This document shows positions 225 to 17,800 of a stretch of DNA of 44,769 nucleotides, piece by piece (position 1 is the first letter of the stretch; every line of letters begins with the position of its first letter). Below the pieces are notes generated by a model. The model was not told where the DNA came from, searched no databases, and was given only the letters and a program-made list of their open reading frames with translations. Source of the stretch: Archangiaceae bacterium (GTDB taxonomy: Bacteria; Myxococcota; Myxococcia; Myxococcales; Myxococcaceae); contig JAHFDQ010000001.1 of NCBI GenBank assembly GCA_023248915.1, forward strand, positions 1 to 44,769, written 5' to 3'. The position numbers were made by a program, and so were the translations under genes.

Positions 225-1505
225 TCACTTGCTTCGGGCGGCCCCACCGCGCTTCACTGCCGACTTTCTGGGCCCTGCCAGCGGCACGCGCAGGATTCTG
301 GCGACGTCCTGCGCCGCCTTCTTCGGCACCCCGGCTTCATCGGCGTGGCGACCGAACTCGTTCACGGCATGTCGAACTTCATCGATGACTCGCCGAGGCC
401 GCCTCACGTCGACCGACGAGGCCAACTCGAGCAGGTCCTTGTCGGTGGGGTTGGCCCCCTCCCGCCCGACCAGCATCCAATGTTCCCCGCCAGGGCCTGA
501 CGAGAAGGTCAAATCATACGCCGGGCTCGGGCTCCACTCGCCGCGCTCGCTCATGAGAAAGGCGAAGTTCCGGGCGTGGTCGTCACGGTTATGGGCGTAG
601 ACGTTGAAACACGCCCTCCGGAACATCTCGGTGACGGCCGCTTCGTTGCGCGTGAGCTTTCGCGTCGCGAGCAGCAGGTCCCTGTACGTGAGGGACGGAT
701 TTCTGTGTGACGCGTGCAGCACGCCCGCAAGCGTGTGGAGGTGGATTTTCCGGCGTCCGTTGCGATCGAATCGGCGGACGGCGAAGTACCCGGCGTGCCG
801 CGCCGTTCGGCCGAGCAGCGTGGTGGAGGGGACGTCGAGGCCCGCCGCGGCGGCCATCCTGAAGTAGGCGTGCTCGAGCACGCCCGCGTGGGGTGCGTCG
901 TCCCTCGCGGGGAACTTGACGATGTAGGGGGTGCAGCCCGGGCGCGCCTTGCGGTCGCCGTAGATGACCTTCCCCTCAGCCCCGACCTGCACCAGCGCCT
1001 TCGGGCGAGCTCCCTGCGGTGAACCTCCGAGCGCGATGAGTCGGTCCAGGTCTGGCGCCTTGGCGTCATGGAGGACCGCCTCCACCTCGGCGGCTATCTG
1101 CGGCAGACTCACGACGCTCGGTGGCTGGAGGTCGACTTCGGGCTGATAGACGAGCGCGCCCATCGAGCGGGCTCCGATGAGGGCAAGCCGGTCGAGCGGA
1201 CCCAGCTCTGCGGGCAGCAGTCCCGCCCTCGCCGCGCGACGGTCGATGAGGAGCCGCCCCCACCCGTCGGGCAGGCTGTCGTCGAACACCCCGGGCAGAC
1301 CGTCGAAGAGTTGAGGTTCCCCAACGAAGACGCCACCCCGGAGCGGCAGCTTGATGGGGGACAACTCGATACCCCTCGTCAGCCACTGGGCGTCGTACTC
1401 GAAGAGGATTTCGCGGTCTTTGGTTGCGAGGCGGCCAACCTTGAGGAACCGGTCCTCCTCGGGCTCGTAGAAGACGGTCAGCAGTCGTACCTGCTGGACT
1501 GTCAC
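225..1505 (-). CDS. hipA: Type II toxin-antitoxin system HipA-family serine/threonine kinase toxin
   Basis: 426 aa. The N-terminal region looks like the HipA coupling domain (VGRLATKDREILFEYDAQWL...ELSPIKLPL). The C-terminal kinase core carries DDHARNFAFL...WSPSPAYDLTFS. The GTG start overlaps the upstream gene's stop (GTGA). Confidence 0.9.
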   Translation of the reverse strand: MTVQQVRLLTVFYEPEEDRFLKVGRLATKDREILFEYDAQWLTRGIELSPIKLPLRGGVFVGEPQLFDGLPGVFDDSLPDGWGRLLIDRRAARAGLLPAELGPLDRLALIGARSMGALVYQPEVDLQPPSVVSLPQIAAEVEAVLHDAKAPDLDRLIALGGSPQGARPKALVQVGAEGKVIYGDRKARPGCTPYIVKFPARDDAPHAGVLEHAYFRMAAAAGLDVPSTTLLGRTARHAGYFAVRRFDRNGRRKIHLHTLAGVLHASHRNPSLTYRDLLLATRKLTRNEAAVTEMFRRACFNVYAHNRDDHARNFAFLMSERGEWSPSPAYDLTFSSGPGGEHWMLVGREGANPTDKDLLELASSVDVRRPRRVIDEVRHAVNEFGRHADEAGVPKKAAQDVARILRVPLAGPRKSAVKRGGAARSK

Positions 1506-1819
1506 TTCCGCCTCCGGACTCGCTGTCGCTCGACGCCCCCTGGCTCTTCCAGCGCTTCGTCGAGCGAGCGGTACCTGGGGACCTCGAAGAGCTTCTCGAG
1601 GCCGCCCTCTACGCCCAGCGCAGTGGCTATTCGCAGCAGGTTCTCGAGCGATGCACGGCCAGTGTTCTCGAAACGCACCACGGTGCCGGTTCCTACGCCA
1701 GCGCGCGCGGCGAGCTCGCGTTGCTGGAACCCGCGCAGGATTCGGAGTCGACGGGCGCGGCGCCCCAGGTCGACCAGGCTTGTTTTGTATGAATCCACTA
1801 GTGAAATACTAACTACCAT
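1502..1819 (-). CDS. hipB: XRE-family helix-turn-helix antitoxin (HipB-like)
   Basis: 105 aa with an HTH_3-like segment LRILRGFQQRELAARAGVGTGTVVRFENTGRASLENLLRIATALG. It lies immediately upstream of hipA with a 4-nt overlap. Confidence 0.8.
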   Translation of the reverse strand: MVVSISLVDSYKTSLVDLGRRARRLRILRGFQQRELAARAGVGTGTVVRFENTGRASLENLLRIATALGVEGGLEKLFEVPRYRSLDEALEEPGGVERQRVRRRK

Positions 1820-1887: not shown

Positions 1888-2436
1888 TCACTGCCCCTGC
1901 TGGTCCTTCAGCCGGTCGGGAATCACCTCGAGCTTCGCGGCATACGTCAGCCTCGAGTCCGACGTGAACTCGATGAGGTGGTCGCCGACCCCGGCCAGGT
2001 CGGCCTCGCGCGCGACGTACCCCACCTGCTCGGACTCGCCGACGAACGTGCGGCCGGTGACGGTGTGGCGCACCCGCGACCGGCACTGGTCCTCGTAGAA
2101 GTTGATGACCGTCTCGTCCCCCGCCGCGATGATGCCGTCGAGCAGGAAGAGAATGCGAACGACGGACGGCTCGAAGAGCTGCACGGCCAGCCGGCCGTCC
2201 CCCGGGAACTTGCCCTGAATGTAGCTGGCATCGCCGAGCAGGCAGCCGACCACCTTGTCGCAGACCGGCCACTGCGCGTCGCAGGTGTCGGCCACCCGCG
2301 ACCCGAGAAACTCCTCGCGGCGGCTCTCGGGGGTGCAGCCCGCGGCCGCCAGGGCGGAAACCAGGGCCAGCCCCCACGCGGCCCGGGCGACCGGACCTTG
2401 GACTCCGGACCGAAACGCGACTAAGAATGGCGGCAT
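1888..2436 (-). CDS. Hypothetical lipoprotein
   Basis: I chose the internal ATG at 2436 rather than the ORF-track start at 2625. It gives a signal peptide plus lipobox (MPPFLVAFRSG...LALVSALAAAGC). Composition and GC3 look normal. I recognise no family. Confidence 0.55.
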   Translation of the reverse strand: MPPFLVAFRSGVQGPVARAAWGLALVSALAAAGCTPESRREEFLGSRVADTCDAQWPVCDKVVGCLLGDASYIQGKFPGDGRLAVQLFEPSVVRILFLLDGIIAAGDETVINFYEDQCRSRVRHTVTGRTFVGESEQVGYVAREADLAGVGDHLIEFTSDSRLTYAAKLEVIPDRLKDQQGQ

Positions 2437-2485: not shown

Positions 2486-2911
2486 ATGCCGTTGCGCACC
2501 GTCCTTGGCTTCACCATCTTCCTCGCTCTGGTTGCCTGTGGGAATACCCCTTCGCTTCCCCAGAAGCCGCAGCTCATCACCGACCGCGACTCGCTGGGCT
2601 TCGGCCAGGAGTTCGGCAGCGGCACCTACATCGGCACGTCGACGCAGAATTCGCTGATGATCGAGAACCAGGGGCTCGACCCGCTGGTGCTCAACCAGGT
2701 CACCATCGCCGGCGACAGCGCCTTCGTGCTCGACCCGGCCTCGAGCACCACCATCAAGGCCAAGGCCCGCGCCTTCCTGCGCATCACCTTCACCCCCACC
2801 CAGGCCAAGGTTTACACCGCGACCATCACCATCGACTCGAACGCCGAGAACACGCCCCACAAGACGGTGGACGTCACCGGCAAGGGCATCGTCGGCGGCG
2901 ACGGGGGCTGA
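2486..2911 (+). CDS. Small lipoprotein with an ASH / choice-of-anchor-D-like (PapD-fold) beta-sandwich domain
   Basis: The ATG at 2486 gives MPLRTVLGFTIFLALVACG (lipobox LVAC). The body (DSLGFGQEFG...QNSLMIENQGLDPLVLNQVTIAGDSAFVL...ARAFLRITFTPTQAKVYTATITIDSN) fits the ASH/HYDIN-like pattern common in myxobacterial surface proteins. Confidence 0.6.
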   Translation: MPLRTVLGFTIFLALVACGNTPSLPQKPQLITDRDSLGFGQEFGSGTYIGTSTQNSLMIENQGLDPLVLNQVTIAGDSAFVLDPASSTTIKAKARAFLRITFTPTQAKVYTATITIDSNAENTPHKTVDVTGKGIVGGDGG

Positions 2912-2925
2912 GCGGGCCTTTACGC

Positions 2926-4710
2926 CTACGGCTTCTTCTTCACCTCGCACCGGTCGAGCAGGTCTTCCGGCGCCACCTCGATGACGCCGTCGACGGGCGA
3001 CTTGATGCCGCCTATCGGGTAGCGCATTCCCTTGAAGCGGGCTCCGCGCACCAGCGTGCGCCCGGTGGGGTCGTCGGCGGGAATCATCGCCAGCGAGACG
3101 AAGAGATCATTGTACCCGGCGCCCCGCCCCGAGCCTCCGTCGCGGAAGTCGGGCAGCGTGGGCGCCAGCGCGATGTTGGCCACGCGGAAGCGGTAGCACT
3201 GCCGGCCTTGGGGGTCGACCGGCCCGTCGGCGTTGATCTGGTACCGGTAGCCGGTGGTGGTGAGCTTCGACCCGTCGGCCAGCAACGGGTCGGTGTGCCT
3301 CTGAATCTCCTGGTAGTTGTACATGCCGTCGCTGTCCGGGTCTTCGTCGCGGTCGTAGCTCGACGGCTGGGTGCGCATCTGCCACTCGATTGAATCGGGA
3401 ATGCCGTCCTGGTCGCTGTCCGAGCGCAGCCCGTTGGTGCCGATGATCTGCTCGTCGCAGTCGGTCAGCCCGTCGCAGTCCGAGTCGATGGCGCGCAGGG
3501 CGGGCGGGCAGCCCGGGTCGAGGCCGCCGCCGTCGGGCTGCGCGAGCTGGTTGGGCACGAACGAAGCTCCCAGCTTGGCGAAGTGCACCTCGACCCCGTC
3601 CGAGAAGCCGTCGCCGTCGGTGTCGGGGGCGAGCGGGTCGGTCCCGGCGGCGAGCTCTTCGGCGTCGGTCAACCCGTCGCCGTCGGAATCGGCCTCGGTG
3701 TCCGGTGAGTCGGCCGGCGCCGAGAAGTTGGTCACCAGGAATTCCTTCAGCGCATAGTCGCGGCGCACCTCGCCGAAGTCGAAGTTCAGGAAGTTGATGG
3801 GTTCGTTGTTGCGGAAGTCGCGGAAGGCGCCGCCGCCTATCTGGGCCATGCGGTCGAGCCGTTCGGCGTCTTGGTTGATCATCAGCATCGGGCAGGCCCC
3901 CGCGGGGACCACCGGAAACCGGCACGAGCTGCCCGTCGGCGGAGCCGTGTACCCGGTCAGGTCGCAGACCGCGGACAGCGGCTGGGTCGGGTTGAACACG
4001 TGCACCGTGTTGACCCGGACGTCGTCGGCCAGGTCCTTCAACTGGCGCACCCGAACCACCGCGTCGCCGCACAAGAGCTCGTCGTCCTGGTTGATGGTGG
4101 GGTGACCGTCGGACAGGAAGATGACCGAGTACCGGGCGACCGCTTCCGACTTGCTCAGCCGGGCGATGGCCAGGTCGCGGTTGATGAGCGCGTAGATTTC
4201 GGCCAGCGGCTTGATGAAGTCGGTGGCGTCGGCGTTCGCCCCGCCGTCGGGGTTCAACCCCGGGGTGGGCACGAAGTTGAGCAGCCGTTCCTTCAGCATC
4301 AGCCGGTCGTTGTCGGTGAAGGTGATGAGCTGCTCGAACTCGGGCAGGTTGCTGCGGGTCAGGAACGCGGGGGTCGAACCGGCGAACACCATCACCGAGA
4401 TGTAGATTTCCGGGTCGGTGGGCAGGGCTTCCATCAGGTCGATGATGGCCGTGGCGCGCGTGCCGTCGGGGTCGGTCACGTTCATCGACTGCGACGCGTC
4501 GAGCGCCATCATGATCTTGATGGGCCGGACCACCTCGTTGGTGCCCAGGGTGCACACCCGGCCCTCGACCGTCACCGTGCGGTCCACCGGCGCCGACGCG
4601 GTGTTGAGCGGATCGTAGACGTAGACGTCGGTGCACGACCAGGCGGCCACCGCCAGGGCCGCCGCGTGGCCAGCCCGCCACCCGGCCCCCTGCCGCCGCC
4701 GGACGGTCAC
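2926..4710 (-). CDS. Lipoprotein with a VWA domain (intact MIDAS), TSP3-type calcium-binding repeats and a family-specific C-terminal domain (paralog 1 of 3)
   Basis: 594 aa. The signal/lipobox is ...AALAVAAWSC-TD. The MIDAS motif DASQS lies in IKIMMALDASQSM. Asp-rich repeats include DSDGDGLTDAEE, DTDGDGFSDG, DSDCDGLTDCDE, DSDQDGIPDS and DPDSDGMYN. The C-terminal motif is GYRYQ...PQGRQCYRFRVANIAL. The GTG start overlaps the upstream stop (GTGA). Confidence 0.85.
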   Translation of the reverse strand: MTVRRRQGAGWRAGHAAALAVAAWSCTDVYVYDPLNTASAPVDRTVTVEGRVCTLGTNEVVRPIKIMMALDASQSMNVTDPDGTRATAIIDLMEALPTDPEIYISVMVFAGSTPAFLTRSNLPEFEQLITFTDNDRLMLKERLLNFVPTPGLNPDGGANADATDFIKPLAEIYALINRDLAIARLSKSEAVARYSVIFLSDGHPTINQDDELLCGDAVVRVRQLKDLADDVRVNTVHVFNPTQPLSAVCDLTGYTAPPTGSSCRFPVVPAGACPMLMINQDAERLDRMAQIGGGAFRDFRNNEPINFLNFDFGEVRRDYALKEFLVTNFSAPADSPDTEADSDGDGLTDAEELAAGTDPLAPDTDGDGFSDGVEVHFAKLGASFVPNQLAQPDGGGLDPGCPPALRAIDSDCDGLTDCDEQIIGTNGLRSDSDQDGIPDSIEWQMRTQPSSYDRDEDPDSDGMYNYQEIQRHTDPLLADGSKLTTTGYRYQINADGPVDPQGRQCYRFRVANIALAPTLPDFRDGGSGRGAGYNDLFVSLAMIPADDPTGRTLVRGARFKGMRYPIGGIKSPVDGVIEVAPEDLLDRCEVKKKP

Positions 4711-6656
4711 GGGGCGGTCCCCACGCAGCGGCTCTTGAAGGCCGCCGGGTCGCCGGTCATCTGCGACGGCGAGAGGAAGTTCGAGTTCAGCACCTCGACC
4801 TCGGGGCCAGTCGGCACCCGCACCGACGGCGGGTCGTACTGCGCCCAGACGCAGGCGGTGCGCCAGACGCCGTAGTCGGTGCCGACGCCGCTTTGCGGGG
4901 CCTCGCCGAACCAGACCTTGTACAGGTTGTAGCCTTGGCGAAGCCCGGCGCGGGACGGGGGCGTGACGAGCGTCAGGTTCGACACCGAGAAGTCGTAGCA
5001 GATGGTGCCGTCGGGCTGGGTCTGGGCCGAGGTGGCGTACTGGTAGCCAAACTCCTCGATGAAGTCGCGGTCACGCACGGTGGGGTCTGAGTCGAGGCTC
5101 AGCTCGTCCATGTCGGGAATGCCGTCACCGTCGGTGTCGAGCCCCACCGAGGCGGGCACGAGCGGGTCGAGGCCGTAGCGCACCTCGACCCCGTCCGGAA
5201 TGCCGTCGGCGTCGGAGTCGACGATGCCGGTTCGCGACTTCAGGAAGTCCTCCTCCGCGAACTGGGACAGGCCGTCGCCGTCGGTGTCGCGGCACGAGCA
5301 GCCGAGCGTCGCCGGGTCCGTCGGGTTGCACCCCCGGCCGTCCTTCTCGTTCGGCACGAAGCCGCGGTCCCCTCGCATCTGTTCGAAGCGGTCGTCGAAG
5401 CAGTCGCCGTCGGTGTCCGGGGCGAAGTTGCTCGTCTTCCAGGGCTTGTAGGGCTGGTCCAGCGTGTCGGCCAGTCCGTCGCCGTCGGAATCGACCAACC
5501 GCCCGGTGGGCCCCGGCACCGAGGTGACCGACTGCACCAAGAGCGTCTTCATCACGTTGGGCGCCGCCAAGGACGAGTAGTCGAGGGCGCCCAGGCCGAG
5601 GTTGGCGATTTCGCTGTTGTTGAATTCCTGGAAGACGCCGTTGCCGCGCTGGGCCATCTGCCGCAACAGCCACGAGGCGATGGCCTTGGTCGCCGCGGGG
5701 TAGTTGGCGGGGGTGGTGTTCGGGTAGGTGCCGTATAGGTCTTGGCAGATGGGGCCGCAGGCCTCGACCGCCGCCTGGTTGAACAGCAGCACGGTGTGGA
5801 AGCGCACGTCGCCGACGTTGAACTGGTCTCGGAGCTCGATCATCTGGTCGACGAACGAGAAGAGCTGGTAGTTCTGGTTGCGGTCGGTGCCCATCACGAA
5901 GCCGGTGATGGCGTCGGGGTCGGTCGGGTCGATGGTGTTGCAGTAGGTGCCCGACCCCGACGAGTCCGCGAACGTCAGGTCGGGGTTGTCCGAGTCGGCA
6001 TACTTTGTGAGGTTGTCGTTGGCCGAGCAGCGCGGAAACGGCGCTCCGTCGGTCAAGAACACCGTCACGTACCGGGTGCGCGGCAGTTGTTCGGGGCTGC
6101 TGTTCGACACGTCGGCGATGTCCGACGCGATGAGCGAGTAGGCGTAGGACATCGCCCCCTGGTAGTCGGTGCCCTTGCCGAGCTGGTTCTGCAGGCCGGT
6201 GATGTACGAGCCGAGCGAGCTGTCGGGCCTCGCGAAGCGCGACCCCGAGGTGGTCGGCGGCCAGACGTTCTTCACGTTGGTCTCGAACGGCACGATGGCG
6301 ATCTGCACGTTGGGCTGGTTCTGAAACTGCCCGATGAGCTGGTTCAACGCGCGCACCCGGGCCGGCTGGGTGACTCCGGGCGGCACGATGGCCACCACCG
6401 CGGCCTGCTCGCAGAAGCCCGACCCTTCCTGCGACCCGGGAGGGTCTGACACGCACATCGACCCAGACTCGTCCACGATGAAGACCACCTTGACCGGGAA
6501 GCCGGTGGGGTCGGGCGGGGCGGTGCAGACGCGCCCCTGGAGGGTGAGCTTGTTGTCGAGGTTGGTGGGTTCGGACGCTTTCGGCTCGATGAATGCGTCG
6601 GTGCACGCGAAGGTCGCCAACAGCGCCGTCACCGTCAGCCATTGCTTTGACGCCAT
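4707..6656 (-). CDS. Lipoprotein with a VWA domain (intact MIDAS), TSP3-type calcium-binding repeats and a family-specific C-terminal domain (paralog 2 of 3)
   Basis: 649 aa. The signal/lipobox is LTVTALLATFAC-TD. The MIDAS motif DESGS lies in VVFIVDESGSM. Repeats include DSDGDGLADT, DTDGDCFDD, DTDGDGLSQF, DSDADGIPDG and [12 protein letters not shown]. The C-terminal motif is GYQYA...PDGTICYDFSVSNLTL. A GGGAGG RBS precedes the ATG at 6656. Confidence 0.85.
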   Translation of the reverse strand: MASKQWLTVTALLATFACTDAFIEPKASEPTNLDNKLTLQGRVCTAPPDPTGFPVKVVFIVDESGSMCVSDPPGSQEGSGFCEQAAVVAIVPPGVTQPARVRALNQLIGQFQNQPNVQIAIVPFETNVKNVWPPTTSGSRFARPDSSLGSYITGLQNQLGKGTDYQGAMSYAYSLIASDIADVSNSSPEQLPRTRYVTVFLTDGAPFPRCSANDNLTKYADSDNPDLTFADSSGSGTYCNTIDPTDPDAITGFVMGTDRNQNYQLFSFVDQMIELRDQFNVGDVRFHTVLLFNQAAVEACGPICQDLYGTYPNTTPANYPAATKAIASWLLRQMAQRGNGVFQEFNNSEIANLGLGALDYSSLAAPNVMKTLLVQSVTSVPGPTGRLVDSDGDGLADTLDQPYKPWKTSNFAPDTDGDCFDDRFEQMRGDRGFVPNEKDGRGCNPTDPATLGCSCRDTDGDGLSQFAEEDFLKSRTGIVDSDADGIPDGVEVRYGLDPLVPASVGLDTDGDGIPDMDELSLDSDPTVRDRDFIEEFGYQYATSAQTQPDGTICYDFSVSNLTLVTPPSRAGLRQGYNLYKVWFGEAPQSGVGTDYGVWRTACVWAQYDPPSVRVPTGPEVEVLNSNFLSPSQMTGDPAAFKSRCVGTAP

Positions 6657-6763
6657 ACGTCCTCCCGCGGTGCTGCCCGACCCCTTTTCAAAAGCCTACG
6701 CCCCGGCGCGCTGGGCGCCGGGGCGGTAGGTGACTTCATCTGGTGCCGCTACCCGGCCCGACC

Positions 6764-8080
<1,317 letters not shown>

Positions 8081-8262
8081 GAACAGCTCCTTTCGAAACT
8101 CCTGGTCGGACCTTCCGATAGCAAGACCCGATCCCACGTCAGTTCGTCTAGTTTGTTTAGTTGTTACGGCTGCTTGTGATTGCGTCGCCCCTTGCGTCCG
8201 AGCTGGGTGTGGGGGGGAGTCCTCAGGATCATTGGGGGTCGCACCCCACAACCTCGAACCGA

Positions 8263-9858
8263 TCAAAAGCCTAGCACGAAGTCGTCGGGGGTCACCTTAA
8301 TGATGCCCTTCGGCTTCTTCTTATCGGGGGGAATGAAGCGCACCTGTTGGATGAAGAGCGACCCGATGCCGGTGCCGCGCGGGTCGGACTCGTGGCCGAC
8401 CTGCAGGTAGAAGTAGATGTCGTTGGTGCCCGCGGGAATCTTCAGGCTGGGGAAGTTCTCGTTGGGCCGTTCGATCGTGTACACCAGGCCGACGTTGGTC
8501 ACCTTGAAGTCGTAGCAGGCGCGGCCATCGGGGGTGGGGGTGCCGTCGGTGATGGCGTAACCGTAGCCGTGCTCGGCGCGGAAACCGATGTCGGCGGACA
8601 GCGCGTCGGTGTGTTGTTTCACTTCTCCGATGTTGGAGTACCCGTCGCGGTCTTGGTCGTTGAGGTCTTCCGGTATCAGCGGGTTGGTGTTGGCGAGCAA
8701 TTCGACCAGGTCGGGAATGCCGTCGCCGTCGGTGTCGGCCACGCACGGGTTGGTGCCGAGCACCCGTTCCTCGCAGTCGTTCAACCGGTCGAAGTCGGTG
8801 TCGAGGAAGGGGTTGCAGCCGTTGATGACGTCGACGTTGCCCGGCTGGGGCTTCAAGCCCATGTGCAGCTCGACGCCGTCCATCAGCCCGTCGCTGTCCG
8901 AGTCGGGGGCGATGGAGTCGGTGCCGGCGTCGGCCTCGTCGTCGTCAGGCATGCCGTCGCCGTCCGAATCGACCAGCACCTTGCCCGACCGGGCGACGGC
9001 GTTGCGGTTGAAGGCGAAGAACTGCTTCAGCACCAGCGCCCGCTGCAAGGAAGCGTAGTTGATGGCGTTCAGCGCCGCCTTCAGGTTTCCGGGGTCGGTC
9101 TCGATGAGCTGGGTGCCGCCCTGGCGGGCGATGGCGGCTCCCTGGGCGGACGCGGTGGGGTCGGCGGTGGTGCGCACGTAGATGGGCTGTATCGAGACCT
9201 CGCCGGCGCGGTACTGGTCTTCCAGCGACTTGAGCGCGCCGGTCACCGCCGACAGCTCGCAGGCCGAGCACTGCGCCGGGTCGGGCATGGCGCTGCACTT
9301 GCCTTCGATGCCGGCGTTGAAGGCCGGGTTGGCGCACGAGGTGTCGGCGTCGGAAAACACCAACACCACCAGGTAGCGGGTGCGACCGACGGTGCCCTTG
9401 CAACCGGTCTGCATGTCGCCCGACAAGAGGCTGCGGGCCAGCCTGAGCGGCGCGCGCAGCGAGATGGGGCCCGCTTCCTGGTAGCTCGAGTACTTCATGG
9501 TCGCGGTCTGAAGCTGCGCCGCGTCGACGTAGGACGCCTGAATGCCGGTGGCGACCGTGTGGTACGCCATCAGCTCGAACTTGATGTAGGGCTCGGAGAA
9601 GCGCGACCCCAGGTCCTGGAGCGCTGCGGTCACCTGCCCCACCACGGTGCGGTCGATGTTGTCGCCGCCTTCGACCGCGAACAGCACCCGCACCGGAAAG
9701 GCCTCGCCGGTCGCCAGCGGCACGCAGACGCTGCCTTCCAGGTCGACCCGGTCGGGGCCGGTGCCTGCCCCCTCGCCTATCTTGTAGAGGCCGACGTCGG
9801 TGCAACCCGAGAGCGCCCAGACGGCGGTCAGCATGAGAATCGGGCGCGAGCGGGACAT
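8263..9858 (-). CDS. Lipoprotein with a VWA-like domain (degenerate MIDAS), TSP3-type repeats and a family-specific C-terminal domain (paralog 3 of 3); first gene of the minus-strand array
   Basis: 531 aa with lipobox [10 protein letters not shown]. The position aligned to the MIDAS reads [14 protein letters not shown] instead of DxSxS. Repeats include [31 protein letters not shown] and DQDRDGYSN. The C-terminal motif is GYGYA...[16 protein letters not shown]. Confidence 0.8.
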
Positions 9859-9965
9859 GGCGCGCCGCGAAGCCTACTCCAGCGCGCCTCGTGGGGACAT
9901 CACGCAGGCGCTCGCCGCAGCGCCCGGGCGCGCGAACTATAGTGAAGGCGGTGTGCGTGTGCTCC

Positions 9966-9994
9966 TTGACGCATTGAAACCCGTTGGCTTTAGT
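9966..9994 (+). promoter_or_regulatory. Candidate sigma70-type promoter in the divergent intergenic region (TTGACG-17 nt-TTTAGT)
   Basis: TTGACG at 9966-9971 and TTTAGT at 9989-9994 are separated by 17 nt, within the 146-nt gap between the divergent gene sets. If real, the transcript would be almost leaderless relative to the ATG at 10005. This rests on sequence pattern only. Confidence 0.25.
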
Positions 9995-10004
9995 TTGGGT
10001 CCTG

Positions 10005-10370
10005 ATGCGTCTGGCTCGTGGCTTGGTGTTGTCGGTGGTGGTTTGCGCCCTGGCGCCCGCGGCTTACGCGGGTCCGAAGGGCAAGCGCGGGGGCGCGGCC
10101 AAGGCGGCCGCTCGACGCGGTGCGGCAGCTCCGGTGGTCAAGCTGAAGCCGGCCGAGGTGCCCGCCGACGCGGCGCCGAAGGACACCGGCAGCGCTCCGG
10201 TCACCCGGGGCCCGACGCGCATCGACTTCGACGACCGGTTGATCCAAGGGCAGACCAACAAGTCGGGCGCCGTCTATCTGTACGACCGCAAGGAACTCAA
10301 GACGCGCTCGATGGTCAAAAGGCGAGAGAGCTTCCGGGACGAGATCGTCGCCACGATCTACGACGACTAG
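10005..10370 (+). CDS. Small secreted protein, first gene of the Glt/Nfs-like operon (possibly GltF-like; unverified)
   Basis: The ATG at 10005 gives the signal peptide MRLARGLVLSVVVCALAPAAYA; the ORF track starts at an upstream TTG at 9984. A basic low-complexity linker follows, then a conserved-looking C-terminus RIDFDDRLIQGQTNKSGAVYLYDRKELKTRSMVKRRESFRDEI. Confidence 0.6.
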   Translation: MRLARGLVLSVVVCALAPAAYAGPKGKRGGAAKAAARRGAAAPVVKLKPAEVPADAAPKDTGSAPVTRGPTRIDFDDRLIQGQTNKSGAVYLYDRKELKTRSMVKRRESFRDEIVATIYDD

Positions 10371-10407
10371 TGCCCGAACTTCATCCGCAGTTCTCAAGGA
10401 GCTTTTT

Positions 10408-12594
10408 TTGAGCGGGCAGCCGGCGGTCCTCCAGGTCGTCATCTTGCGCGACGGGTTGCTCGTGGGCACCGAGGTGTTCGTGCCCGGCTCGTACACCCTC
10501 GGTTCGGGGGGCGAGGCCGACGTCCGCTTGGACGACGGCAGCGTCGACGGCCTGCACGCGGTGCTCTACTTCCAGAACGGCCGCGCGGCCATCCAGGACT
10601 CGGGCAGCACCACCGGCGTCTTCGTCAACGGCCACAAGATTACCGCCTGCGAAGTCCGCTCGGCCGACGAGCTCGCCATCGGCCCGTTCAGCCTGAAGTG
10701 CCGGGTGCTCGCCCAGAAGCCGGCCTCGAAGGCCGCCCCTCCGGCCGACGTCGCGGCGCTGTTGCGGGGCGGTCCGGCGCAGGCGGGCGGCGCTCCGCCC
10801 GGCGCCCCCACCAACCAGATGCGCAGGCCCCACGCTCAGCCCGCCCCTCCGAAGCAGGCCGCGCCCCCTCCGCCGACGCCGCCGCCCAGCCAACCGGGAG
10901 GGACGATGCTGTCCGCCCGCCGCCTGGCGGCGTCCTCGCCTTCGCCATCGAGTGCCAAGGGCGGTGGCCCGCACCTTCGGGCGGTGTCGGCGGCGCCGCA
11001 GTTCGAAGACGACATCGCCTCGACCGACCACCAGACCGTCGAGGCCGACCTGATGGCGGCCACCGTTCCCACCGCCAACCGCGTGGGTCGCCCGCAGGCG
11101 GCGCGCAAGGTGGAACCCGAAGGGCCGGCGACCGAGATGGTGCCGGCGGCCCAGGCACCCGAGTCGCCCAAGAAGGTGCGCGCTCGCGGCGGCCGCAAGC
11201 TGCCTGAAATCTCGGCCTCCAAGTCGAACCCGCGACTGGCCAAGGCCGACACGGCACGGGGCCTGCCCCGCCTGTTCTTCGAGCTCTACTGGGGCGAGGT
11301 GCGGCACGGGGCGCACGGCTTCGGGCCCATTCTGCCGAAGAAGCCGGTGATGGCGGCCCACCGCGGCGACGCCAACCTGCCGCTGTGGGGCTTCTCGCTG
11401 CCCACCGAGCCGATGCTGATGGCCGAGCAAGCCGGCAGCTCGTACCGCGTCTTCGTGCCGCCAGGCGCCGCCATCGAGAAGCGGCAGACCGACGACAACT
11501 TCTACCCGGTGGCCCCCGAGCAGCTCGAGTCGCGCGGCGGCCGGCGCTGCCTGACGCTGTCGAACGGCATGGCGGCGCGCTTCTCCGAGGGCGAGATGCT
11601 GCTGGTCGTCTACGTCCAGCCGGCGCTCCAGCAGCCGCGCATCAGCCCGTTGCACGGCCTGCCCTGGCTGATGCTCACGCTGCTCACGCTGTTCATGGGC
11701 GGCTTCTTCTGGTTCCTTTTGTTCGGCCCGAAGCCCGGCGAGACCGCCGACTTCATGCAAAAGGACTTGCCGCCGGTGGCGGTGCGGCTGATAGCCCCCG
11801 AACCCAAGAAAAAGGAAGAGGCGCAGAAGAAACTCGAGGCCATCAAGGAGAAGGCCGAGAAAGCCAAGAAGAAGGTCGAGACCCCGGTCGCGAAAGAGGC
11901 GCCGAAGCCCAAGAAGAAGGAACGCGAAGAACCCCCGCCGCCCACCGCCGCGCCTCCCCCCGAGACGCGCGCCCTGAAGGCGCTGGCCAAGCTGACCGCG
12001 GCCGGGCCCGCCTCGGGCGACATCTTGGCGGCGGTGGACAAGCTGGGGAACGGGCCCGGGTCGAAGAACAGCAATTTCAAGCTCTCGGGGCTCATCGGCA
12101 AAGCCCCCATCGCCAACGCCGGGCTGGGCACCTTCGGCCTGGGCGGGGGCGGCGGCGGCGGCTTCGGCACTCGCGGGGCAGAGATTTTGCGCGGCCGCGG
12201 CGGCGGCGGCATCGGCGCCCTGGGGGCGGGCAGCGTCGGCCGGGGCTCGGTCGGCGGCACGGTCACCCGGGCCTCGGCGCGAAGCCTGGGCGTGCAAGGG
12301 AGCATCGACCGCGAGGCGGTCGCCAAGTGCGTGAACTCGCACCTGCAAGAGGTGCGCGCCTGCTACGAGCGGGCCCTGTTGAGGGAACCTGGGCTGGCAG
12401 GCAAGGTGGTGCTCGAGTGGAACATCTCGACGGCCGGCAAGGTGGTATCCGCGAAGACCAAAACTTCGACCTTGCGAAACTCGGCGGTCGAGGCTTGCAT
12501 CCTCCAAAATCTGAAGGGGTGGATTTTCCCTCCCGCCAGGGGCGGGATAGTCATCGTCAGCTACCCCTTCCTCTTCAACTCGGTGGGTTACTGA
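10408..12594 (+). CDS. FHA-domain, single-pass membrane, TonB/TolA-like transducer with an AgmX/PglI-type C-terminal domain (GltG/PglI/NfsG-like)
   Basis: 728 aa. An AAGGAG RBS (10396-10401) lies 6 nt before the TTG start. The N-terminal FHA domain reads YTLGSGGEADVRLDDGSVDGLHAVLYFQNGRAAIQDSGSTTGVFVNG. The TM helix is LPWLMLTLLTLFMGGFFWFLLFG. K/E-rich, Pro-rich and Gly-rich linkers follow. The C-terminus GSIDREAVAKCVNSHLQEVRACYERAL...GKVVLEWNISTAGKV...ACILQNLKGWIFPP is typical of the myxobacterial AgmX/PglI C-terminal family. Confidence 0.85.
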   Translation: MSGQPAVLQVVILRDGLLVGTEVFVPGSYTLGSGGEADVRLDDGSVDGLHAVLYFQNGRAAIQDSGSTTGVFVNGHKITACEVRSADELAIGPFSLKCRVLAQKPASKAAPPADVAALLRGGPAQAGGAPPGAPTNQMRRPHAQPAPPKQAAPPPPTPPPSQPGGTMLSARRLAASSPSPSSAKGGGPHLRAVSAAPQFEDDIASTDHQTVEADLMAATVPTANRVGRPQAARKVEPEGPATEMVPAAQAPESPKKVRARGGRKLPEISASKSNPRLAKADTARGLPRLFFELYWGEVRHGAHGFGPILPKKPVMAAHRGDANLPLWGFSLPTEPMLMAEQAGSSYRVFVPPGAAIEKRQTDDNFYPVAPEQLESRGGRRCLTLSNGMAARFSEGEMLLVVYVQPALQQPRISPLHGLPWLMLTLLTLFMGGFFWFLLFGPKPGETADFMQKDLPPVAVRLIAPEPKKKEEAQKKLEAIKEKAEKAKKKVETPVAKEAPKPKKKEREEPPPPTAAPPPETRALKALAKLTAAGPASGDILAAVDKLGNGPGSKNSNFKLSGLIGKAPIANAGLGTFGLGGGGGGGFGTRGAEILRGRGGGGIGALGAGSVGRGSVGGTVTRASARSLGVQGSIDREAVAKCVNSHLQEVRACYERALLREPGLAGKVVLEWNISTAGKVVSAKTKTSTLRNSAVEACILQNLKGWIFPPARGGIVIVSYPFLFNSVGY

Positions 12595-12625
12595 CGTAGC
12601 CCTTCGCGGGGACGGACGGGAAAAA

Positions 12626-13240
12626 GTGCGAAAAGCCTTGCTTGGCCTGATGTTGGTCGTTCCGACCCTGGCGGTCGCCCAGTCGGAAGAGCTCGAGAAT
12701 CCGGGGACTGTGGCCGCGGTGCAGGAACGGGCCTTCCGGATGAACCACGAGCTGGTGCTGGGCCTGGGCGCCTTGCCGCTCGACGCGTTCTACAAGGGCT
12801 ACTACGGCCACCTGGCCTACGCGTTTCACTTCAGCGACAGCTTCGCCTGGCAGGTGATTCGCGGCGCCTACACCTACAACGTCAACACCGGGCTACGCGA
12901 CCAGCTCGAGCGCGACTTCGGGGTGGTGCCCACCGCGTTCGAAGAGGTGCAGTACTTCGTGGGCACGGACATCATGTGGTCGCCGCTGTACGGCAAGTCG
13001 GCGGTGCTGAACTCGTCGGTCCTTTTCTCAGAGACCTACCTCTTGCTCGGCGGGTCGGTCTTCAAGCTCACGAATCACTTCCGGCCGGCCGTCAACCTGG
13101 GGCTCGGGGTGCGGCTGTTCCAGAGCAAGTACCTCTCGTTCCGGCTCGAAGGCACCAACGACTTCGTCATCTCGGACAAACCGTTCAACATCATCACGCT
13201 CCAGCTCGAAGCGGCGGTCAACTTCGGCGCGACCGAGTGA
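12626..13240 (+). CDS. Small outer-membrane beta-barrel protein (GltH/NfsH/GltA-B family-like)
   Basis: 204 aa with a GTG start after GGACGGGA. The signal peptide is LLGLMLVVPTLAVAQ. Alternating amphipathic strands appear, and segments such as AVQERAFRMNHELVLGLGALPLDAFYKG...WSPLYGKSAVLNS recall the myxobacterial OM beta-barrel domain family. Confidence 0.7.
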   Translation: MRKALLGLMLVVPTLAVAQSEELENPGTVAAVQERAFRMNHELVLGLGALPLDAFYKGYYGHLAYAFHFSDSFAWQVIRGAYTYNVNTGLRDQLERDFGVVPTAFEEVQYFVGTDIMWSPLYGKSAVLNSSVLFSETYLLLGGSVFKLTNHFRPAVNLGLGVRLFQSKYLSFRLEGTNDFVISDKPFNIITLQLEAAVNFGATE

Positions 13241-14859
13241 GCTCGAAGGCCTTCGTGAGAAACTCCCTCGTCTTGCTCTCCTGCGTGCTCGCCGCCGGCA
13301 CCGCTCGGGCCGGCAAGGGCACCGACCCGGTCACGGGAGAGGCACCTCCGGACGACCCGGTCGCCGATGAGGCGCCCGCTCCGCTGCCGCCCGCCAAGCC
13401 CGGGGCAGGCGCCGCTCCGCCTGCCGCCGCCACGAAGTCCGAGCCCGAGGCCGAGCCCGAAGGGGCCGCCGCCCCGCAGCAGCACCAGGTGGGGCCGAAG
13501 CTCTTCGACGAGGCGCTGCAGGACTACTTCCAGGGCCGCCCCAAGGAAGCCGCGCCCAAGCTGTTCGCCTTCACCGAGAGCGTCTCGCCCACCGACGAGA
13601 ACTACGCCTGGGCGCAGTTCTTCCTCGCGCGGTCGCTGGTCGACCTGGGGTTGCGCCACGCCGGAGCCGTCTACCTGGCCCGCATCGCGCGCGAACGGTC
13701 GAACCCCGCGGTGCTGCCGAAGGCGCTGGACGAATTGCGCGGACTGGCCGACCTGCCCCACGACGAAGAGATGATCGACAACCAGGTCTTCGGGTCGCTC
13801 GACCTGGGCTTCTTGCCCGAAGAGACCGCCGGCTTCGCCCACTACCAGCAGGGACTGGTCGACCTGAAGGTCGGCAACGAGCGCTGGGCCAACACCCACT
13901 TCGCCAAGCTTACGGAAGGGTCGGCCGAGGCGTCGCGGGCGCGCTTCGCCCTCTTGGTGACGCGCCTGAAGACGACCAAGCGCGACCTGCCGAAAGAGAT
14001 GATCGACGAGTTCCTCGAGCTGTCGAAGGACCCCAAGCTGACCCAGGACTCGCGCAACGAGTCGATGCTGGCGGTGGCCCGCCTGCGCTACGAGCAGAAG
14101 GACTTCAACGGCGCGCTCGAAGCCTACGCCTCGGTGAAGCTGCCGATGCTCGACCCCGGGCGGGCGGCGCTCTACCTCGAAGAGGCGTGGACGAGGTACC
14201 AGCTCGGCCAGATTCACGCGGCGATGGGCATTCTCACCACGCTCGACGCGCCGTCGTTCCGCGACGAGTTCCTCCCGGACAAGTACATCTTGCGCTCGTT
14301 CATCTACCGCGACCTGTGCCACTACCTGCCTGCGAAGCGGGCGGCGAAGGAATTGACCCGGCGCTTCGCCGAGTCGCTCGAGGCGATTCACGAGCGCGAA
14401 GACCTGGCCCAGGACGTGCGGCTGCGCCGCGCCGCCATCTCGCACGGGGCCACCAAGCGGGCCGAGAAGTTCCTCGAGTCGCTGGACCTGGAAGGCGAGC
14501 GGCTGGGGCGCTACGCCGGCAGCTTCGGCGACCGGCTGTTCGCCTACCTCACCAAGCTGTACGACCTGGCCCACGCCGAGTCGGCGCGCATCTTCCAGGT
14601 CCGGCTCCGCGAGTCGGTGCGGGTCGAAGCCGACAAGCTCTTGCGCGCCGCCGAGCAGGTGCGGCTGATGGAATACGAGGTCGGCCTGAAGCTGTACGAG
14701 CGGGTGAAGAAGGGCGCGAAGCTGGTCAGCGAGATCAAGGAAGACCAGCTCACGCCCACCCAGGTCCGGTACCACTTCGTGAACGAGTACTGGAACGACG
14801 AGCTGCGCAACTATCGCTTCTCGTTGAAGTCGCGCTGCATCGAGGAGACCGGCCGATGA
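13237..14859 (+). CDS. TPR-like helical-repeat lipoprotein (GltE/AglT/NfsE-like)
   Basis: 540 aa. The GTG start overlaps the upstream stop (GTGA). A signal peptide with a possible lipobox (LVLLSC) is followed by a Pro/Ala-rich linker and then an all-helical repeat body. The assignment rests on size, position next to the large TPR gene and helical architecture. The exact start is uncertain; an alternative GTG lies at 13255. Confidence 0.65.
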   Translation: MSSKAFVRNSLVLLSCVLAAGTARAGKGTDPVTGEAPPDDPVADEAPAPLPPAKPGAGAAPPAAATKSEPEAEPEGAAAPQQHQVGPKLFDEALQDYFQGRPKEAAPKLFAFTESVSPTDENYAWAQFFLARSLVDLGLRHAGAVYLARIARERSNPAVLPKALDELRGLADLPHDEEMIDNQVFGSLDLGFLPEETAGFAHYQQGLVDLKVGNERWANTHFAKLTEGSAEASRARFALLVTRLKTTKRDLPKEMIDEFLELSKDPKLTQDSRNESMLAVARLRYEQKDFNGALEAYASVKLPMLDPGRAALYLEEAWTRYQLGQIHAAMGILTTLDAPSFRDEFLPDKYILRSFIYRDLCHYLPAKRAAKELTRRFAESLEAIHEREDLAQDVRLRRAAISHGATKRAEKFLESLDLEGERLGRYAGSFGDRLFAYLTKLYDLAHAESARIFQVRLRESVRVEADKLLRAAEQVRLMEYEVGLKLYERVKKGAKLVSEIKEDQLTPTQVRYHFVNEYWNDELRNYRFSLKSRCIEETGR

Positions 14860-17800
14860 GCGCGGTCGTCCCGGTGGTGGCCGCGCTCTGGGTGCTGGCA
14901 CAGACTCCGTCGCAGGTCTTCTTGCAGAACAAGTACGAGAACCCCATCGTCTCGAAGCAGAAGGAAAAAGAAGAGCTCATCACCAAGCTGAAGCGCGACA
15001 TCTACAAGGTCGATCGGTCGATCGGCGAGACCGAGAAGCTGATTACGAAGAGCCGCAACGCCCCGTACCTGCCCGACCTGCAGTTCCGCCTGGCCGAGCT
15101 GTACGTCGAGAAGAGCCGCTACGTCTATTACCTGCAGGCCGAGACCCGGCCCGATGGCACCAAGGGCGCGGTGGTCTCGCCCGAGACCAAGCTGTTGAAG
15201 CAGAAGGCGGTGCAGATCTACTACCGCGTGCTGCACGAGTACCCCGAGTTTCACGACGGCGACAAGGTCACCTTCTACCTGGCGCACGAGCAGCGCGAGC
15301 TCGGTCAGTTCGACGACATGATGAAGACGTTGGGCGAGCTCATCAAGAAGTACCCCAACAGCCCGCTGCGCCTCGATTCCGAGCAGATTCTGGGCGACTA
15401 CTACTTCGACAAGACCGACCTGACCGAGGCCGAGAAGCACTTCAAGGCCATTCTCGACGCGCCCGCCTCGCCGGTGCACGACCTCGCCCGCTACAAGATG
15501 GGGTGGATTCGCATCAACCAGGCCAACCACGCCGAGGCGGTCACCTTCTTCGAGGCCGCGGCCGCCAGCGCTCCCATTCCCGGGGTCGACCAGGCCAAGG
15601 CGCTGAACGTCAAGCGCGAGGCGCTGCTCGACCTGGTCTACAGCTACACCGAGGCGCGCCCGGCCAAGGGGGCGCTCAACTACTTCGAGAAGCTGTCCGA
15701 GTCGCGCGCCACCTACGCGCTGGCGCTCGACAAGCTGGGCAACCGGTACTTCATCAAGCAGCAGTACGAGTTCGCCATTCCCGCGCTGCGGCGCCTGCTC
15801 GAAATCCAGCCCGACCCCGAGCTCGACCTGGAACGGGCCGAGAAGATCTACGACTCGATCAAGGCCTCGAAGGGCAAGGTGGTCGCGCGGCCAGCCGACA
15901 TCCGCTTCCTGGTGCGGGCCGCGGTGCAGACCAAGGTCGACCCGGCGAAGGACGAACCGACGCGGAAGAAGCAGTTGGCCGAGCTCGAAGAGATGGGGCG
16001 CGACCTGGCCACCCAGCTTCACGTCGCGGCGCAAAAGAAGGAAGACCACCCCCACTACATGGAAGCGGCCGCGGCCTACGAGGAATACCTGGCCCTGTTC
16101 CGCCCGCGGCAGCACGTCACCACCATCATGTCGAACCGCGCCGACGCGCTGTTCGCCGCCAAGGAATTCCCGTCGGCGGCGCGCCAGTTCGAAGAGCTGG
16201 CCACCTACCTGGAAGCCAAGGACGCCAAGGCGCACGAGGCTTCGCTCTACGGGGCGCTGTTGTCGCACTACTCGTCGCTGAAGCAGGGCGAGGTCGAACG
16301 GCTGAACGCCTTCGAGGTGGCCGACGCGCGGCAGGCGCTGAAGCTGTTGGGCGCCAACTTCGTGTCGCGCTACGCCCAGAGCGAGCACGTGCTCGAGGTG
16401 AAGTTCAACATCGCCCGCGCCTACTACGAAGACGGCGAGTTCCCGAAGGCGGCCGAGCTGTTCAAGGACTTCGCCCTGAAGCACTCCGAGCACAAAGACG
16501 CCGCCGCCGCCGGCAACCTGGCCCTCGACTCGCTGCGCCAGGTGAACGACTTCAAGGGGCTGGAAACGACCGGCAAGGCCTTCCTGGCCTCGAGGCTGCC
16601 GGCGGCCTTCCTTTCCGACGTGCAGAAGATTCTCACCGAGAGCAAGGGGGAAGAGCTGGGCGAGCTGGTGCTGAAGAGCTCGGAAGAGTCGGGCGACGTC
16701 GTCGAGGGGCTGCTCAAGGTCGCCGAAGAGAACAAGGGCAAGGACATCGGCGAGAAGGCGATGCACGGGGCCTTCCAGGCGGCGCGCGACAAGCGCGACC
16801 TGCGAAAGGAACGCGAGATTGGCGCCCGCTTCATCAACGAATACCCGAAGTCCGGCTTCCTCGCCGACGTGCTGTTGACCCTGGGCAGGGCCGCGGCCGA
16901 AGGGGCGCGCTTCACCGAGGCCGCTGCCTGGTACGACCAGGTGGGGCAACGCATGGGCGCCGACTCGACTGGGCTGGACGGCTTCCTCACCAGCGGCAAG
17001 CTGAAGCTGGCGATGGGCGACTACCCCGGCGCGGCCAAGGCCTTCGGCGCCGGGGCTGACATCGCCGGGCCGCGCAAGTCCGAGGTGCTGGCCCTGATGG
17101 CCGACGCCGAGCTGAAGCAGAAGGACCCGGCCCGGGCGCGCGCGTTGGCCGAGCAGGCCCTGAAGCTCGACAGACAGAACTCCGCCGCCGCCGCCGTCGT
17201 GGCCGAGGTGCAGGCCACCACCGCGCCGCACGAGAAGCCCGACGCGCTGGTGGCGATGCTGACCGCCATCTCGAACGGCCCCAACGGGCAGAGCGAAGAC
17301 ACGGCGAAGGGGCTCTGGTTTCTGGGCGACATCCTCTACCGGAACTACAAGGCGCTGCCGGCCGACAAGGTCGAAGAGAAGGTGGCGGCGCTGCAACAGC
17401 TCGAGGGCATCTTCGGCCAGGCGGCGCAGATGGGTTCGCCCGAGTGGGCGGTCGCGGCCCTGTGGAAGATTGGCCTGTCCTACGCCCACCTGGCCGACGT
17501 CGTCGAGGGCACGCCGATGCCCGCGGGGCTGAAGCCGGCCGAGGTCGAGCAGTTTCGCAACGCGGTGAAGGAACAGGTGAACCCGTTGCGCGAAAGGTCC
17601 GACGGCGCCTTCAAGGCCTGCCTGTCTCGCGCCGAACAGCTCGAGGTCTTCAGCGCGGCGCTGGTCGGCTGCCGCACCAAGAGCGAGACCGCCAAGTCGC
17701 CCATTCCGCTTCCGTCCGAAGGACGGCCGGTCAACGTCGACGAGCTGCAGCAGAAGGCCGAAACCACCATGAACCCGTCGGCCATCGAGGCCCTGGGCAT

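Follow-up and report, generated by a model that had tools for sequence, protein, structure and literature searches.

The DNA analysed here, called the window below, is a 44,769-nucleotide (44.8-kb) stretch of ~65-72% GC from an uncultured Myxococcaceae-like genome (Archangiaceae bacterium, assembly GCA_023248915.1, contig JAHFDQ010000001.1). Between positions 2926 and 9858 it carries four genes head to tail, all on the minus strand, which make up the core (mtsBCDE) of mts, a locus for cell-cell cohesion in myxobacteria. A previous sequence-only reading of this region had described three paralogous lipoproteins with a VWA domain and thrombospondin type 3 (TSP3) calcium loops, together with a co-oriented fourth TSP3 gene. 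The three open reading frames (ORFs), their strand and their lengths of 531, 649 and 594 aa are confirmed. The fourth gene is indeed co-oriented with them; its likely start was corrected to ~8080 from the coverage of an NCBIfam model and from a drop in the GC content of third codon positions (GC3) upstream, giving a product of 438 aa, and the start of the 500-aa ORF was set aside. All four genes have a GC3 of 0.92-0.94 against 68% GC for the window, a signature of real genes. The stop codon of mtsD and the start codon of mtsE overlap by 4 nt (GTGA, read directly in the DNA), which suggests coupled translation.

Identification of the mts genes

The 649-aa protein matches the NCBIfam equivalog model for MtsD, 'cell-cell cohesion protein' (NF047639), with 1071 bits over residues 4-649 (cut-off 800). 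The 438-aa protein matches the equivalog model for MtsC, 'cell-cell cohesion MYXO-CTERM protein' (NF047638), with 609 bits (cut-off 350), and its C-terminus shows the Cys, the hydrophobic stretch and the Arg cluster of a MYXO-CTERM tail. The 594-aa and 531-aa proteins fail the cut-off of the MtsD model, with 142 and 94 bits, respectively. Their M. xanthus counterparts score alike (MtsE 145 bits, MtsB 94 bits), and both proteins are thus paralogues of MtsD rather than MtsD itself. A homologue of the 594-aa protein in a metagenome-assembled genome (MAG) carries the annotation 'mtsE', and the closest MtsE relatives are 55-74% identical. For the 531-aa protein, a search for a database-given name 'mtsB' met with no names other than 'calcium-binding protein' and 'thrombospondin type 3 repeat-containing protein'. 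We infer that its gene is mtsB (MXAN_1333) from the gene order and the MXAN numbering, in which MXAN_1327 is the gltD homologue of cluster G5 (PMC3169522) and MXAN_1334 is MtsC (PMC12475490). The numbering from MXAN_1327 to MXAN_1334 agrees with the gene order both in the window and in the locus of M. xanthus AM003. The architecture, for whose C-terminal module the sequence-only reading knew no characterised bacterial family, therefore belongs to a named and genetically characterised locus, which speaks against its novelty, and the function attached to that locus is not an unrelated one: it is adhesion, as the sequence-only reading had guessed.

The mts locus was reportedly found in M. fulvus HW-1, and its M. 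xanthus homologues are said to be needed for cohesion. A passage of PMC11980579, which refers to Zhang et al. (2007, J Bacteriol 189:7937), gives MtsC a part in cell-cell cohesion, in social (S) motility and in development.

MtsB, MtsD and MtsE form one family

One family comprises MtsB, MtsD and MtsE: each has a lipobox and a VWA domain, then calcium loops that number exactly five, and at the C-terminus a module of ~115 aa. They align with each other from end to end in BLASTP at 24-29% identity, with E values of 5e-34, 2e-44 and 2e-28. The modules (last ~115 residues) also align pairwise on their own, so that the paralogy extends to the C-terminal regions; the E value is 3e-5 for MtsE and MtsD, and 5e-11 and 1e-8 for the other two pairs. 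The alignment of the MtsE and MtsD modules, the only pair so tested, reached 26.2 bits, and the highest of 100 shuffles gave 16.9. Duplication followed by divergence, as proposed before, accounts for these results.

The motifs listed for the three proteins are all present, and they hold over 64 family representatives. In the window, the signal peptide of each protein ends in a lipobox Cys. This Cys is followed by T/S-D/N (Thr-Asp in the three proteins of the window), then comes a strand with the motif L-x-G-x-[VF]-C-T (L-x-G-x-V-C in the window), and the C-terminal motif reads [GA]-Y-R-Y...G-R-x-C-Y-x-F-x-V-x-N-[IV]-x-L, together with an invariant G-x-N. The VWA domain of the paralogues contains large, lineage-specific insertions.

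The VWA domain and its metal site

The VWA domain had been claimed for all three lipoproteins, and independent evidence for it was obtained in two of them. MtsD is the only one to reach a Pfam threshold, with 29.9 bits for VWA_2 (cut-off 27), and it also passes the threshold for Pfam VWA. For MtsE, AlphaFold2 was run with 122 homologues and gave a full-length model with a pLDDT of 90.1 and a pTM of 0.83. A Foldseek search with this model against the PDB returned VWA domains exclusively, with E values of 7e-8 to 1e-5 and TM-scores on the target of 0.45-0.70. The matches include TEM8/ANTXR1 (3n2n, 0.66), the integrin alpha2 I domain (1dzi, 0.63), CMG2, complement C2a, factor B, Plasmodium TRAP and ITIH1; among the top 50, integrin alpha I domains are present and beta subunits are absent. 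MtsB is called a putative VWA protein from its homology to the other two (N-terminal halves, E 4e-4), and its metal motif is lost.

The three paralogues are split in their MIDAS (metal ion-dependent adhesion site). In MtsD the MIDAS residues are D62, S64, S66, T163 and D203, and they are kept in 77 of 78 orthologues. Those of MtsE (D71, S73, S75, T163 and D201) are kept in all 81 sequences. The D-x-S-x-S motif occurs in none of the 50 MtsB orthologues, which typically have Q/E-x-G-x-G, I/V and S at the MIDAS positions; the MtsB of the window has E-G-G-D-N, I and D. Distant loci of Myxococcota repeat this division, their MtsB-like proteins being without the motif. MtsB orthologues are accordingly named 'calcium-binding protein', and not VWA, by NCBI.

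Calcium loops, the C-terminal module and two conserved cysteines

Each lipoprotein contains DxDxDGxxDxxE-type loops, as noted previously, and their number is exactly five in each rather than four to six. Four of the five are strict and one is relaxed, their positions correspond between the proteins, and their Asp columns are invariant across the paralogues. The Pfam model TSP3_bac (PF18884, cut-off 25) matches MtsE with 75.9 bits (E 2e-21) and MtsB with 48.6 bits (E 6.8e-13), while MtsD stays slightly under the cut-off with 22.5 bits. MtsC matches Pfam TSP_3 with an E value of 2.6e-47. In total there are 15 loops in the three lipoproteins and ~10-11 more in MtsC.

In the model of MtsE, the C-terminal module consists of one helix followed by a beta region of five to six strands. 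Residues 314-594 of MtsE, which comprise the strand after the VWA domain, the calcium loops and the module, were also modelled separately, with a pLDDT of 88.5 and a pTM of 0.87; this confident model suggests that they form a single compact unit. The module of none of the three paralogues matched anything in Pfam at E<=10, and a profile search against the PDB gave solely a spurious 27-residue match to cyanovirin, with no stretch passing. With the MtsE 314-594 model, the best Foldseek match in the PDB had an E value of 0.87 and thrombospondin/COMP entries were absent, in a fold search that covered the PDB with a program that performs poorly when structures are irregular and rich in loops or when sheets are small. 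A comparison of the module with the C-terminal region of MtsC by hhalign gave a probability of 0.7%.

The profile of the module was then searched exhaustively against 1.84 billion representative proteins at E<=1e-3, and 231 representatives were matched. Every full-length match combines the lipobox and the VWA domain with about five loops and, close to its C-terminus, the module; in a few, extra C-terminal extensions follow. Two candidates for other architectures (P0253 and P0256) turned out to be repetitive false positives. All named carriers of the module are Myxococcota, except one MAG labelled Pseudomonadota. The module is thus private to the lipobox-VWA-TSP3 architecture, as was suspected from the three proteins, and it is nearly restricted to Myxococcota.

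Two cysteines are nearly invariant in the family (MtsE numbering, MAFFT columns): C53, at the end of the N-terminal strand, is present in 59 of 60 representatives, and C505, in the module, in 63 of 64. The sole representative without C505 is also without C53. This paired conservation and loss suggests a disulfide that would link the N-terminal strand to the module, with Cys53-Cys505 as the candidate.

Conservation of the locus

When each species was represented by one genome, a scan gave 80 loci, which all come from Myxococcaceae or Archangiaceae and of which 44 are longer than 20 kb (long loci). The gene order mtsB-mtsC-mtsD-mtsE is found in 44/44 long loci, including those of M. xanthus AM003 (L022) and Corallococcus. 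Each of these 44 Cystobacterineae loci carries the complete set of four genes, and so does the distant locus L081. The proteins of the window are at best 68-74% identical to those of the 80 loci; with M. xanthus AM003 the identity is 56-63%. Two MtsC-like TSP3 copies occur in tandem upstream of mtsD in L009, L018 and L039, and also in the distant locus L083 (4822-7804).

In three distant Myxococcota MAGs (L081, L083 and L084), two or three paralogous lipoproteins are accompanied by a downstream gene of ~700-780 aa. An MtsC-like gene is present in L081 and L083, and none was identified in L084. The distant loci vary in copy number and orientation; in L081 (MAG GCA_020633465.1, Myxococcales), for example, the MtsB-like gene is divergently oriented. 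The presence of three paralogue groups in distant Myxococcota indicates that the triplication is older than the split of these lineages. Chance similarity and a recent tandem duplication are both ruled out by E values of 1e-28 or lower and by the three orthologue groups, found in 44/44 long loci and in distant Myxococcota.

Two genes that commonly flank the core elsewhere are missing from the window. A gene for a lipoprotein of ~800 aa, presumed to be mtsF, follows mtsE in 78/80 loci (M. xanthus L022, 11722-14112), and a CxxCH-containing gene of 812 aa, presumed to be mtsA, lies upstream of mtsB in 35/80 (M. xanthus L022, 2253-4691), a place that corresponds to the junction 9858-9984 in the window. 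A tblastn search with the 812-aa (presumed MtsA) and 796-aa (presumed MtsF) proteins of M. xanthus found nothing in the 44.8-kb window. This points either to a lineage with a minimal mtsBCDE set or to a location of both genes elsewhere in the genome.

Genes adjoining the mts locus

Divergent from mtsB lies a Glt-like cluster of envelope genes that corresponds to cluster G5 (Table 1). Its matches fall below the cut-offs of the gliding-protein models, so that its members are paralogues of gliding proteins. Its size, its TPR content and the place of its gene mark the 1310-aa TPR protein as the presumed gltD homologue. Cluster G5 was described by Luciano et al. (2011) as being of unknown function, and a polar mutation in its gltD homologue, MXAN_1327, left motility unaffected on hard or soft agar (PMC3169522). 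A GltG-like gene is found no more than 10 kb from mts in at least 24 of the 44 long loci; in L018 and L076 it is on the other side of mts, and around L083 the nearest 10 kb hold nothing Glt-like. In L081 (1494-3638), the mts-like set adjoins ExbB-ExbD-ExbD and a small CglF-like gene, an arrangement that hints at a recurring link of Mts-type adhesins with Tol/Exb/Agl-type motors. No motor of the ExbB/ExbD type was found elsewhere in the window. Just past the Glt-like cluster is a 345-aa ORF whose single match, to the last ~70 residues of a model for myxosortase-dependent phytase, suggests another MYXO-CTERM-tagged surface protein.

On the other side, the end of mtsE is separated by 15 bp from the end of a convergent gene (junction 2911-2926). 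This gene is one of a divergent pair of small lipoprotein genes that is kept downstream of the mts genes in nearly all of the 44 long loci. One product of the pair has an ASH/HYDIN-type Ig-like 'choice-of-anchor D' domain, and the other has no family match. The ORFs first listed for the pair (2255-2911 and 1888-2625) overlap, and the GC content by codon position favours the shorter starts. At the edge of the window, a HipA-like ORF and an ORF with a helix-turn-helix recognised by eye overlap by 4 nt and look like a type II toxin-antitoxin pair. Beyond the Glt-like cluster, an ATPase gene and a small ORF with a phage-type domain may be mobile or defence-related genes. They are followed by housekeeping genes for a Leu/Phe-tRNA protein transferase, a peptidase M3 and an AIR-synthase-related/FGAR-amidotransferase-type protein.

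Table 1. Genes, domains and neighbouring features of the mts region, in window coordinates
Feature	Coordinates	Strand	Description and basis
mtsB-like gene	8263..9858	-	531-aa lipoprotein, lipobox ALSG-C19; VWA-derived domain without MIDAS, five Ca loops, C-terminal module; called from ORF, GC3 0.92, paralogy and position
mtsC	6764..8080	-	438-aa secreted protein with MYXO-CTERM sorting tail; ~10-11 eukaryote-type TSP3 repeats, then beta-rich C-terminal region
mtsD	4707..6656	-	649-aa lipoprotein, lipobox ATFA-C18; VWA with intact MIDAS, five Ca loops, C-terminal module
mtsE	2926..4710	-	594-aa lipoprotein, lipobox AAWS-C26; GTG start
VWA domain, MtsE residues ~63-330	3721..4524	-	AlphaFold2 strand/helix alternation and Foldseek
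Five TSP3-type Ca loops, MtsE residues ~338-478	3277..3699	-	
Ca-loop region, MtsD	5079..5501	-	
Ca-loop region, MtsB	8608..8982	-	
C-terminal module, MtsE residues 480-594	2929..3273	-	
C-terminal module, MtsD residues 527-649	4710..5078	-	
C-terminal module, MtsB residues 418-531	8266..8607	-	Last conserved Cys missing
Glt-like 'G5' envelope cluster	9984..21151	+	Divergent from mts; CglF-like (128 aa), FHA + GltG-like (TonB-C-like, 728 aa), OMP_myx_plus beta-barrel, GltC-like, TPR protein (1310 aa), 209-aa ORF, GltE-like TPR protein (639 aa); NCBIfam matches, all below equivalog cut-offs
345-aa ORF	21171..22208	+	Partial match to myxosortase-dependent phytase model
Small lipoprotein gene	2486..2911	+	141 aa, 'choice-of-anchor D' domain
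Small lipoprotein gene	1888..2436	-	182 aa
HipA-like ORF	225..1505	-	426 aa, HipA-family kinase-like, weak YjjJ match
XRE-like ORF	1502..1819	-	105 aa, helix-turn-helix-like (XRE-type) by eye
ATPase gene	23429..24640	-	AAA_14/DUF4143
Small ORF	25882..26520	-	'Putative phage metallopeptidase' domain

Predicted location and a model for Mts-mediated cohesion

In M. xanthus, Lys at position +2 of a lipoprotein is an inner-membrane signal and Ala at position +7 is a matrix signal (PMC3222651). Position +2 is Thr in MtsB, MtsD and MtsE, and position +7 is Y, E and Y; with neither signal present, this rule predicts outer-membrane lipoproteins, which may be exposed on the surface. MYXO-CTERM tails such as that of MtsC are used by the myxosortase/type II secretion system (T2SS) pathway for cell-surface anchoring (PMC11980579). 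Divalent cations are required for cell-cell adhesion in myxobacteria, according to a passage of PMC7549232 that cites Shimkets (1986).

Taken as a whole, we consider it fairly probable that the mts proteins form a divalent-cation-dependent adhesin complex of the outer membrane, which would work as follows. MtsB, MtsD and MtsE would each be anchored by the lipid on their N-terminal Cys, predicted to lie in the outer membrane. From there, each chain would run through a short linker, a beta-strand ending in the first invariant Cys, the VWA domain, the five calcium loops and the beta module with the second invariant Cys. The calcium loops, packed on the C-terminal module, may serve as a rigid, calcium-stabilised stalk or base. 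MtsC would be exported and anchored via its MYXO-CTERM tail, and the four proteins would assemble into one adhesin complex on the outer membrane. MtsD and MtsE could grip an acidic ligand through their intact MIDAS sites, the candidates being MtsC with its many Asp residues, material of the matrix or a partner carried by the neighbouring cell; MtsC would then be either a ligand or a co-adhesin. MtsB, having lost the metal site, may act as a non-binding structural or regulatory subunit. We infer that a hetero-complex is assembled, what kind of ligand it binds and what calcium does in it; for the assembly, the indications are all indirect, namely the strict co-occurrence of the four genes, their fixed order, the overlap of mtsD and mtsE and the retention of a binding-dead paralogue.

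Two observations weigh against such a complex. The MtsF-like gene is missing from the window, and the system may thus be incomplete or differently organised there. In addition, three independent adhesins would fit the keeping of three paralogues too. Each lipoprotein would then be a lone surface adhesin with its own ligand, such as different polymers of the matrix, the surfaces of prey or kin cells. MtsC would act separately, without formation of a hetero-complex. Among VWA lipoproteins, CglB for one does work as a single adhesin subunit (PMC9946355), and the low identity of the paralogues (24-29%) with the large lineage-specific insertions in their VWA domains is what diversified binding surfaces would show; the doubling of mtsC in L009, L018 and L039 and the varying copy number and orientation in the distant loci also fit. 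We regard this explanation as unlikely. MtsB has lost the MIDAS in 50/50 orthologues and in the distant relatives, and its gene is nevertheless always kept beside the others; a partner subunit would show this pattern more readily than a metal-dependent adhesin that acts alone. The strict four-gene co-occurrence, the fixed order and the stop-start overlap of mtsD and mtsE also speak for joint action. A further possible role would be that of an envelope calcium buffer, or of a nucleator of mineral, in which the Asp-rich loops store calcium. It would make use of the 15 loops in the lipoproteins and the ~10-11 in MtsC and would match the NCBI name of the MtsB orthologues, 'calcium-binding protein'. 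It would leave unexplained why the MIDAS of MtsD and MtsE, a ligand-binding device that is needless for buffering, is strictly conserved, and the phenotype given for the locus in the passage of PMC11980579 is cohesion and S motility; we think such a role highly improbable.

The neighbouring genes raise another alternative, in which the Mts proteins would be the surface adhesin module, of the CglD/CglB type, of a trans-envelope machine that is encoded by the G5 cluster and driven by the proton-motive force, so that cohesion would be energised. The surface adhesins of the gliding Glt machine are the VWA lipoproteins CglB and CglD (PMC9946355; bioRxiv 10.1101/2023.10.19.562135), and in the window mts abuts genes of the CglF-, GltG-, OMP_myx_plus, GltC-, presumed GltD- and GltE-like kind. 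The GltG-like neighbour recurs within 10 kb in at least 24 of the 44 long loci, and a distant Myxococcales MAG has ExbB-ExbD-ExbD and a CglF-like gene next to its mts-like set. Taken by itself, adjacency is weak evidence, and it is not universal, being absent in L083 and on the other side in L018 and L076. The MXAN_1327 mutant shows normal motility (PMC3169522), whereas MtsC is cited for S motility in PMC11980579, in the passage mentioned above. Both this phenotype and the patchiness of the adjacency speak against a link between Mts and G5 that is obligatory, and we judge this alternative to be unlikely. If it were true, G5, the CglF-like protein and MtsBCDE would be a third specialisation of Agl/Glt-type motors, after gliding (Glt) and spore-coat assembly (Nfs). 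Such a G5-Mts machine would power or regulate cohesion and would provide a molecular basis for the cohesion of M. xanthus, long known to depend on energy and divalent cations.

Cell-cell cohesion underlies the multicellularity of myxobacteria, from social motility and aggregation to the formation of fruiting bodies, and in the open literature that we searched its proteins are poorly defined compared with pili and exopolysaccharide. The name of the mts locus and its cohesion phenotype are already known, so that the window does not contain a new kind of system. The three-paralogue family, its conserved member without a MIDAS, the phylum-restricted module without a fold relative and the link to an orphan Glt-like cluster seem to be new: the searched literature holds no mention of the paralogy of the Mts proteins, the MIDAS split, the C-terminal module or a Glt-like link, and no molecular model for a locus that has been linked genetically to cohesion since 2007. 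The outcome is therefore a sharper description of a neglected system. It suggests a model in which an integrin-like triad of VWA lipoproteins, two with complete metal sites and one without, is joined by a thrombospondin-repeat partner on the myxosortase pathway. It singles out residues for mutation, namely the MIDAS Asp and Ser and the invariant cysteines, and prompts the question whether cohesion draws its energy from the orphan Glt-like cluster next door.

Comparison with known systems

The label 'integrin/thrombospondin-like', given to the three lipoproteins from their domains, stands as an analogy only; neither the C-terminal lectin domain of thrombospondin nor domains specific to beta-integrins were found in them. 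A beta integrin is marked by a beta-I domain set into a hybrid domain, with PSI and EGF modules besides; in MtsE, the N-terminal strand (residues 45-53), the strand after the VWA domain (319-328) and the C-terminal module might together make up one such hybrid-like sandwich. With the VWA adhesion domains of eukaryotes (integrin I, TEM8/CMG2, TRAP and C2a/factor B) they share the fold and the D-x-S-x-S...T...D site. The identity is 11-19%, the Mts VWA domain has ~270 residues with long insertions as opposed to ~185, and the neighbour domains specific to integrins were not detected. With the signature domain of thrombospondin/COMP (PDB 1UX6 and 3FBY) they share a run of DxDxDGxxDxxE loops followed by a beta-rich C-terminal domain. 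In thrombospondin, the TSP3 'calcium wire' wraps an L-lectin-like C-terminal domain, whereas TSP_C is not matched by the Mts proteins in Pfam at E<=10. The TSP_C domain is also larger (~200 aa) than the Mts module (~115 aa), and the Mts loops are of the short bacterial type (PF18884) with few cysteines.

Parallels are also found within M. xanthus: CglB and CglD, both VWA lipoproteins of the outer membrane, serve as adhesins exposed on the surface (PMC9946355; bioRxiv 10.1101/2023.10.19.562135). CglB is a lipid-anchored VWA adhesin with a MIDAS on the cell surface, a build close to that predicted for the Mts proteins; it works with the Glt complex, and its description, by which it is set apart here, mentions no TSP3 loops (PMC9946355). 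A CglB-like short single-domain architecture does not occur among the matches of the module profile. CglD is calcium dependent and has TSP3/COMP-like repeats (bioRxiv 10.1101/2023.10.19.562135), so that it combines, in the same phylum, the features predicted for Mts: an outer-membrane lipoprotein with VWA/MIDAS and TSP3/COMP-type loops. The CglD model NCBIfam NF033765 matches the three lipoproteins only in the TSP3 region, with 44, 27 and 39 bits, far below its cut-off of 400, and the Mts proteins are thus not members of the CglD family. The domain order of CglD is reversed, with TSP3 first and VWA last (bioRxiv 10.1101/2023.10.19.562135). At 1130 aa it is also about twice as long, it carries EGF-like Cys-rich repeats and it is without the Mts C-terminal module. 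Its role is in gliding (A) motility, whereas mts is tied to cohesion and S motility.

The mts locus of M. xanthus and most relatives differs from that of the window in having the presumed mtsA (812 aa) and mtsF (~800 aa), both of which the window is without. In the core itself, the genes of the window are orthologous to those of the mts locus of M. fulvus HW-1 and M. xanthus, they follow the same B-C-D-E order, and their products pass the MtsC and MtsD models.

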